DNA of 22,950 nt from Escherichia coli (GTDB lineage Bacteria; Pseudomonadota; Gammaproteobacteria; Enterobacterales; Enterobacteriaceae): the NCBI RefSeq assembly GCF_003334355.1, contig NZ_QOWP01000046.1; one strand, written 5' to 3'. The translations under genes and the position numbers were made by a program. How positions within the stretch are numbered: position 1 is the first letter of the stretch; the number at the start of each line of letters is the position of its first letter. Positions 5,442 through 5,853 of this stretch are shown here, in pieces. Under the pieces are notes generated by a model, which was not told the origin of the DNA, did no database searches, and worked only from the letters and a program-made list of their open reading frames with translations.

Positions 5442-5654
5442 ATGTCTAACAAAATGACTGGTTTAGTGAAATGGTTTAACCCTGAAAAAGGTTTTGGTTT
5501 CATCACGCCGAAAGATGGCAGCAAAGATGTGTTTGTCCATTTCTCAGCAATTCAGAGCAACGATTTCAAAACATTAACTGAGAATCAGGAAGTTGAATTT
5601 GGTATTGAGAACGGACCTAAAGGTCCTGCCGCTGTTCATGTAGTGGCGCTTTGA
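5442..5654 (+). CDS. cspI: Cold-shock protein, CspA family (CspI-like)
   Basis: 70 aa, [38 protein letters not shown]…, with RNP1/RNP2 motifs (KGFGFI, VFVHF). Paralog name assigned from the Qin-like gene order; family assignment is secure. Confidence 0.9.
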
Positions 5655-5688
5655 GGTAGACAATATTACAAACCATATTCACTTTAGA

Positions 5689-5853
5689 TGCCCGTGTTGT
5701 CATGGTTCCCAGTATAGAACATCATCTTTTGATGTTTCTGACATGAATCCTTTCGGGGCAAAATGTATCTTTTGTAAATCAATGATGATTACATTTGATA
5801 ATATTTCACAATACTTAAATGCCAGCCGTCTGTCGTTGGATTTAAAAAAGTGA
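5689..5853 (+). CDS. Small zinc-ribbon protein (CPCC…x22…CIFC), possibly ynfN-like; start codon unresolved
   Basis: Open frame encoding …CPCCHGSQYRTSSFDVSDMNPFGAKCIFCKSMMITFDNISQYLNASRLSLDLKK, ending at TGA 5851-5853 and followed directly by a UUCG-tetraloop terminator. No in-frame ATG/GTG/TTG lies upstream of the first CxxC; the first in-frame ATG (5741) is after it. Confidence 0.3.
   Translation, partial: CPCCHGSQYRTSSFDVSDMNPFGAKCIFCKSMMITFDNISQYLNASRLSLDLKK

Follow-up and report, generated by a model that had tools for sequence, protein, structure and literature searches.

In Escherichia coli, infC (the gene for initiation factor 3, IF3) and pcnB are alone regarded as confirmed genes with an AUU start, a codon from which initiation proceeds at 1-2% of the level of AUG (10.1101/063800). 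AUU starts are repressed, or discriminated against, by IF3 (PMC5499595). In both genes the AUU is served by a Shine-Dalgarno (SD) sequence, and AUU or AUC is conserved at the start position across species (PMC5499595; 10.1101/063800). Here we describe a start of the same kind, with an SD, conserved AUU/AUC and expected discrimination by IF3, in ynfQ, a small gene of the cryptic prophage Qin. The gene lies on a stretch of 22,950 nucleotides from E. coli (assembly GCF_003334355.1, contig NZ_QOWP01000046.1), which is referred to as the window. Both ynfQ and its ATT start already belong to the curated annotation; comparative support for ATT and a model of translational coupling are added here. Very likely, ynfQ encodes a 62-residue zinc-ribbon protein of the YmcF family and is started at AUU as the second cistron behind the cold-shock gene cspI, to whose translation its own appears to be coupled.

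The closest described relative is ymcF (b4723), the chromosomal paralog downstream of cspG. Like ynfQ, ymcF has 62 codons and a CPCCHGSQY...CIFC core, starts with ATT, carries an AAGG or GAGG core 7-8 nucleotides upstream and follows the stop codon of a cspA-family gene after a gap of 10 nucleotides; the downstream gene order is also the same, with a gene of the GnsA/GnsB family further on. The two genes are about 73% identical at the DNA level and differ in location, ymcF being part of the core chromosome whereas ynfQ belongs to prophage Qin and to lambdoid phage genomes. The upstream csp gene ends in CTC TAA for ymcF and in CTT TGA for ynfQ, and the ymcF frame extends upstream for a longer distance without a stop, with TTG and GTG codons far away, whereas that of ynfQ is closed by a TAG. 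Both genes are found on cold-shock transcripts. IF3 levels change under cold shock.

The sequence of the window agrees with that of E. coli K-12 MG1655 at 100% identity, as the region does with that of many other strains, and 2147 of the 5426 complete E. coli genomes contain the region. In the curated record NC_000913.3, ynfQ (b4724) occupies 1638256-1638444 on the minus strand, which corresponds to 5665-5853 on the plus strand of the window; the Prokaryotic Genome Annotation Pipeline (PGAP) gives the same interval as WP_071524604.1, a 'cold-shock protein'. With a coding sequence (CDS) of 189 nucleotides thus annotated, the sole possible first codon is ATT. The gene order is rrrQ, rzpQ, cspI (5442-5654), ynfQ, ynfR (5856-5921), ynfN and gnsB, followed by ydfO on the opposite strand. 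A preliminary description of the window, made from its letters alone, had proposed a comparison with ynfN-like homologs; the open reading frame (ORF) concerned is ynfQ, and ynfN is the next-but-one gene, at 6000-6155. The name ynfQ was also used by VanOrsdel et al. 2018 (PMC6001520) for another ORF of 37 residues between ydfJ and ydfK. As this is a different ORF, the evidence given there under that name is irrelevant to b4724.

That the ORF is a real gene, as the preliminary description had argued, is borne out by its protein family. YnfQ matches the Pfam family PF23641 ('YmcF-like') with residues 1-62 on model positions 1-62 of 62 (E 1.8e-32, 111.8 bits). More than 130 homologous protein clusters were found, mostly of 62 residues and named 'cold shock small protein YmcF' in RefSeq, and PF23641 is present in 120 of 120 homologs among the matches listed. 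In 28 diverse homologs, C9, P10, C12, G14, S15, Q16 and C37 are invariant, and conservation is 90% or more at C11, H13 and C34; none of the family cysteines is missing from the window sequence. The AlphaFold model of YnfQ, of medium confidence (mean predicted local distance difference test score 75), has short strands and a C-terminal helix. YnfQ presumably binds a metal through C9/C12 and C34/C37.

The ynfQ frame opens at 5644, right after a TAG (5641-5643) that stands eight codons upstream of the ATT, and closes with the TGA at 5851-5853; translation of 5641-5853 gives 69 protein letters. The preliminary description had pointed to a zinc-ribbon ORF of this extent (5644-5853) that lacks a canonical in-frame start before the first CxxC, and we find the same: neither the ORF list nor the sequence contains an in-frame ATG, GTG or TTG between 5644 and the first cysteine codon (TGC 5689). 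The ATG at 5688-5690 is indeed out of frame and begins a nine-codon ORF of its own (MPVLSWFPV*), and the first canonical start in the ynfQ frame is the ATG at 5743 (Met27). Two ATT codons are in frame, at 5665 and 5677. A start at ATT 5665, which would make the suggested non-canonical start the correct one among the explanations offered earlier, is supported by the curated CDS, which begins there, and by the comparative data set out below. This ATT is preceded by the cspI stop (TGA 5652-5654) at a distance of 10 nucleotides. ATT 5677 was considered as a start and rejected: it is 19 nucleotides from the SD and aligns with a conserved internal isoleucine that is also present in orthologs starting with ATG. 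The RNA around the ATT (5630-5700) is not predicted to fold more stably than shuffled sequence (z +0.76), and there is no sign of a regulatory hairpin in that interval.

To compare the start across species, Enterobacteriaceae were sampled at one genome per species (80 loci fetched, 77 of them non-redundant), and the codon eight positions before the first cysteine was read. The codon aligned with the ATT of ynfQ is ATT in 37 loci, ATC in 3 and ATG in 34; in the remaining 3 of the 77, an ATG is found one codon after or three codons before the aligned position. An AGG core is located 7-9 nucleotides upstream of the start codon in 73 of the 77 loci. Codon 5, which encodes an internal isoleucine, drifts between ATT (42 loci) and ATC (28), whereas codon 1 alternates between ATT and ATG; this alternation is the behavior of a start codon. 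ATT is kept as the start in more than 10 genera. In 16 species-representative ATT loci and in the window allele, the stretch from the upstream in-frame stop to the first cysteine contains no canonical start codon (ATG, GTG or TTG). In Kosakonia the TAA of csp is itself in frame, three codons before the ATT, and in two Atlantibacter loci the ATT is immediately followed by an ATG.

Several database homologs (P0006, P0008, P0010 and P0013) are entered at a length of 70-71 residues, with N-termini such as MLWRFKVTIITNH, e.g. MLWRFKV.... The additional residues, about nine in number, are read from the 3' end of the preceding csp gene, from in-frame start codons within it, and isoleucine is retained opposite the ATT; the extensions probably arose because the gene caller needed a canonical start codon.

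The explanations first offered for the missing start also included a frameshift mutation and a sequencing error. Together with a point mutation in the start codon, these belong to a reading in which an ancestral ATG was removed and ynfQ is a broken gene, a pseudogene of a decaying prophage. Such a history would suit the cryptic state of Qin, and in one K-12 record PGAP marks the neighboring ynfN as 'frameshifted'. It is contradicted by the constancy of the region, whose identity is 99% or more in 1564 complete E. coli records, by the persistence of the same start-less ATT arrangement in the chromosomal paralog ymcF and across genera, and by the strong purifying selection to which the protein is subject. 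The same module is also present, at 96-99.7% identity, in deposited genomes of lambdoid phages (Tritos, 2H10, mEp460 and HannyBb). Sequencing error and pseudogene were both rejected on the grounds of the identity among records and the conservation of ATT across genera, and we regard the chance of a broken gene as negligible.

The 77 loci are equally informative about a start at ATG 5743 (Met27), which would yield a 36-residue protein and leave the upstream CPCC untranslated. This ATG is the only canonical in-frame start, and it is the one from which the mechanical ORF list counts (5743-5853); the preliminary description, which gave its position as 5741, had named homologs beginning at this methionine as the finding that would remove the CxxC pair from the protein. 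The homologs look otherwise. Residue 27 is methionine in 1 of the 77 loci, lysine in 45 and otherwise arginine, serine or glutamine, and another E. coli ynfQ allele has AGA (arginine) at codon 27. Upstream of it, C9, P10, C12, G14, S15 and Q16 are invariant, and the CPCC motif as a whole is invariant or nearly so. The ratio of nonsynonymous to synonymous polymorphism (pN/pS) is 0.11 over codons 9-26, which include CPCC, and 0.13 over codons 27-46, within a range of 0.11-0.16 over codons 2-46; by this measure codons 9-26 are under strong purifying selection. Moreover, without the first knuckle only half of the metal site would remain. A start at Met27 was rejected, the methionine being unique to the window allele and the codons upstream being under purifying selection, and we consider it highly improbable.

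One point absent from the preliminary description is the position of cspI, whose end 10 nucleotides ahead of ynfQ is probably the key to a working ATT start. Wherever a cspA-family gene ends 9-10 nucleotides upstream, the start is ATT or ATC (36 of 36 such loci), whereas stand-alone copies in Klebsiella, Raoultella, Enterobacter, Leclercia, Lelliottia and others start with ATG and have AGGAG or AAGG. Remnants of a csp 3' end are present in some of the stand-alone loci; in Klebsiella, the upstream DNA encodes a remnant of the csp C-terminus, PAVVNVVA, which suggests that csp was lost with replacement of ATT by ATG. Three ATT loci have no csp gene (L016, L030 and L050), and each of them has an ATG-initiated mini-ORF of 8-10 codons. 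The mini-ORF of L050 (about 1455-1500) has ten codons, MFLDFCVIAH*, and ends in TAAGG, 13 nucleotides (10 by another count) before the ATT, while that of L016 and L030 (about 1480-1510), the eight-codon MKKGYYYY*, overlaps the ATT and ends 5 nucleotides past its first base. Because ATT or ATC stands next to the end of csp or of a mini-ORF, because ATG is found in stand-alone copies, and because AUU is weak, we propose that the start is used by translational coupling.

According to this proposal, the very poor start codon AUU, against which IF3 discriminates, would not have to recruit ribosomes by itself: those finishing cspI would probably be delivered directly onto the SD and AUU of ynfQ by termination-reinitiation. 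YnfQ would then be made only when CspI is translated in cold shock, at a low and constant ratio to it. A stricter version holds that the AUU of ynfQ and ymcF is obligatorily termination-dependent, firing only after csp or a substitute mini-ORF has been finished 9-13 nucleotides away and thereby setting a low and fixed YnfQ:Csp ratio. We advance it tentatively, as a conjecture about as apt to fail as to hold, or slightly more so. If it is true, YnfQ synthesis would be a read-out of csp translation in cold shock, perhaps adjusted by the increase of IF3 in the cold, and the start would be a natural and evolutionarily recurrent non-canonical codon that is held by coupling and turned into AUG whenever the upstream cistron is lost. 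The comparison with infC and pcnB is instructive in this respect. The AUU of infC is explained by IF3 autoregulation, which has no obvious counterpart at ynfQ. To our knowledge, neither infC nor pcnB has been described as relying on a preceding cistron whose end is a few bases away from the start, whereas an AUU of the ynfQ type always stands 9-10 nucleotides after a csp stop or next to the stop of a mini-ORF. The change of ynfQ orthologs to AUG on loss of the upstream gene is a further difference from both genes.

Alternatively, the AUU of ynfQ may be reached by ordinary de novo binding of 30 S subunits at the SD, independently of cspI translation, the weak codon serving to keep YnfQ low or responsive to IF3, as in infC, and the association with csp being a phylogenetic accident. 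A well-spaced SD does precede the ATT, AUU is seen to function in the absence of coupling in infC and pcnB, and discrimination by IF3 is documented (PMC5499595). Nonetheless, we think this explanation unlikely in view of the exclusive use of ATT or ATC in the csp-adjacent loci, of the ATG-initiated mini-ORFs that end next to the ATT in the three loci without csp, and of the switch to ATG in copies that have lost csp.

Several observations weigh against our own proposal. The ATT and ATG groups interleave on a neighbor-joining tree of the 190-nucleotide gene, which is poorly resolved, and the association of ATT with a neighboring csp may go back to a small number of independent events in evolution, a point that would equally favor initiation independent of cspI. 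mRNAs with AUU are less active at low temperature in vitro (PMC5499595), and AUU is therefore not obviously a cold-favoring device. The searchable literature yielded no experiment showing initiation at the AUU of ynfQ, and no N-terminal proteomics or start-site profiling for ynfQ or ymcF. As for the protein, the zinc-ribbon assignment is putative, being based on the cysteine pattern and a medium-confidence model, and a Foldseek search against the PDB returned no significant structure match, zinc-ribbon proteins included (best E 0.35).

A quite different way of dispensing with a start codon is suggested by the end of cspI. The sequence GCG CTT TGA GGT (5646-5657) contains CTT TGA (5649-5654), the core of the heptad CUU UGA C at which a +1 shift takes place in prfB, the gene for release factor 2 (RF2), and the ynfQ frame, open from 5644, is +1 relative to cspI. 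With the core of a shift site followed, as in prfB, by a +1-frame ORF that has no canonical start, a programmed +1 ribosomal frameshift producing a CspI-YnfQ fusion of cold-shock domain and zinc ribbon is conceivable. In Citrobacter sedlakii, moreover, the DNA of one locus (L009) joins a degenerate csp and a ymcF homolog in a single reading frame, so a csp-YmcF fusion protein is not an absurd idea. Unlike prfB, however, cspI has no stimulatory SD 3 nucleotides upstream of CUU, the sequence there, CATGTAGTGGCG, being without an AGGGGG- or GGAGG-like element. Nor is the site conserved: the csp-adjacent loci vary at the csp end (CTC TAA, GTA TAA, CGC TAA and CAC TGA), and CTT-T occurs in a minority. 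In seven loci with a 9-nucleotide gap (Kosakonia and close relatives), csp and the small gene share one frame and are separated by a TAA, which excludes a +1 mechanism there. The downstream ORF also differs from that of prfB in having its own conserved SD and AUU/AUG; both the conservation of ATT with a correctly spaced SD and the ATG of the stand-alone copies would be left unexplained if the codon were a purely internal isoleucine codon. Frameshifting at CUU UGA was rejected, as the site is unconserved and the loci with the 9-nucleotide gap are in frame 0; it is very improbable as the source of YnfQ and would account for a minor by-product at most.

The Citrobacter sedlakii locus (strain NBRC 105722; L009, about 1260-1690) merits a description of its own. 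A deletion has removed the 3' end of its degenerate csp (KEFNAEKGFGFIAPADG...VFVPSSAIQ) and placed the rest in frame with the ymcF homolog, whose start position is occupied by ATG; the Rfam cspA score is low (83 bits). The locus could represent a natural fusion of a cold-shock domain and a zinc ribbon, or a decaying copy.

The features of the cspI-ynfQ region are listed in Table 1.

Table 1. Positions of the cspI-ynfQ region features in the window, with the basis of each
Feature	Position	Strand	Basis and remarks
cspI 5' untranslated leader, cspA-type thermoregulator	5297..5441	+	Rfam RF01766; start of the transcript that also carries ynfQ
cspI CDS, 70-residue cold-shock protein	5442..5654	+	ORF list and RefSeq annotation of the identical K-12 sequence; ends GCG CTT TGA
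SD-like GAGGT	5653..5657	+	overlaps the cspI stop TGA 5652-5654; 7 nucleotides before the ATT start
ynfQ (b4724) CDS, small YmcF-like protein, putative zinc ribbon	5665..5853	+	62 codons and TGA; PF23641, homologs, pN/pS
ynfQ ATT start codon	5665..5667	+	curated CDS coordinates; aligned codons in 77 loci; no canonical in-frame start before the first cysteine
First putative metal-binding knuckle, C9-P-C11-C12 (TGC CCG TGT TGT), then H13-G-S-Q-Y	5689..5700	+	conservation in 28 homologs
Internal Met27 codon, first canonical in-frame ATG, not the start	5743..5745	+	methionine in 1 of 77 loci
Second putative knuckle, C34-I-F-C37 (TGT ATC TTT TGT)	5764..5775	+	conservation in 28 homologs
ynfR, 21 residues	5856..5921	+	RefSeq annotation; ATG 2 nucleotides after the ynfQ stop; reads through the terminator hairpin
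Intrinsic-terminator-like hairpin (GGCUCC-UUCG-GGAGCU, about 5858-5879) and U-run, predicted end of the cspI-ynfQ transcript	5858..5881	+	RNA fold

The Rfam model of the cspA thermoregulator (RF01766) matches over its full length at 5297-5681 (114 bits against a gathering score of 78; E 7.7e-30), while Rfam detected no cspA-type leader at the stand-alone loci of the ATG type. No terminator was found between cspI and ynfQ, the sole terminator-like hairpin being located after ynfQ, which places ynfQ second on the cold-shock transcript of cspI. The two genes appear to be co-expressed: published transcript fold-changes under three conditions run closely parallel, at 6.5, 4.3 and 38 for cspI and 5.9, 4.0 and 42 for ynfQ (PMC11228462), and both genes are down-regulated together in butanol (PMC11728337). 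Induction by cold, to which the YmcF family owes its name, is suggested for ynfQ indirectly, by its place on a transcript with a cspA-type leader and by these parallel transcript levels.

The terminator that the preliminary description had seen behind the CPCC...CIFC reading frame is recovered as a hairpin at 5858-5881 (-14.9 kcal/mol; z = -3.05 against shuffles), with the addition that it lies inside the annotated ynfR. A scan for terminator patterns reported the same stem (5862-5875) on the minus strand only, with the tail CTTCATTTTC, although the plus strand has the better U-run; lying between an A-rich tract upstream and a T-run downstream, the hairpin may act in both directions. The junction of ynfQ and ynfR reads TGAAAATG, and the whole hairpin is contained in the ynfR CDS. 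A tagged YnfR (YnfR-SPA) is strongly induced by cold shock (VanOrsdel et al. 2018, PMC6001520), which implies that the hairpin is read through. There may thus be a third level of translational coupling, from cspI to ynfQ to ynfR.

Gene finders limited to ATG, GTG and TTG miss ynfQ, as the example of phage mEp460 illustrates. Papers still name infC and pcnB as the sole E. coli genes with an AUU start (PMC5499595; 10.1101/063800), and ynfQ and ymcF are further annotated cases. The distribution of start codons, ATT beside the end of csp or of a mini-ORF and ATG in copies standing alone, provides a testable model in which coupling keeps a very weak start in service.

As to the protein itself, YnfQ resembles generic four-cysteine zinc ribbons and rubredoxin-like knuckles, such as those of the MqsA N-terminal domain, the TFIIE-alpha finger and ribosomal eL43, in having two CxxC knuckles about 22 residues apart and, in the model, short beta strands around them. 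It has been described as matching the rubredoxin topology (PMC13348028). It differs from these proteins in its additional conserved Cys11 and His13 (CPCCHGSQY), and has no significant match to solved structures. A sequence-profile search of the PDB with YnfQ gave weak matches only (E >=0.055), PHROGs contains no family for it, and the match in NCBIfam, to the 'ECs_2282 family putative zinc-binding protein', is below threshold (17.8 bits against a cutoff of 37). The segment FRCPCCHGSQY (residues 7-17; 5683-5715) resembles the Rieske 'box II' CPCHGSQY of the iron-sulfur subunits of cytochrome b6f; the PDB profile matches that accompany this resemblance are weak (E 0.055-0.8). Given the extra conserved Cys11 and His13, the metal center of YnfQ may be something other than a plain zinc site. 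As regards its role, YnfQ can be called a putative metal-binding partner of the cold-shock response, and no more than that.

The cspI-ynfQ-ynfN-gnsB module is located downstream of the lysis genes in the lambdoid phages Tritos, 2H10, mEp460, HannyBb and PhiR42_1, with 96-99.8% identity. In Tritos the 189-nucleotide CDS of ynfQ is annotated, and in mEp460 no CDS is called at that place. The block at 5290-6500 of the window (phage loci L085 and L086) parallels the chromosomal cspG-ymcF-ymcE-gnsA cluster. These parallels suggest that a cold-shock cassette has been exchanged between phage and chromosome. Further downstream, ynfN has 51 residues (6000-6155) in the curated K-12 record and is a frameshifted pseudogene (5926-6155) according to PGAP in another K-12 assembly. 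An intact version of 76 residues exists in strain H5, and a CDS of the same size (231 nucleotides) occupies the corresponding position in phage mEp460.

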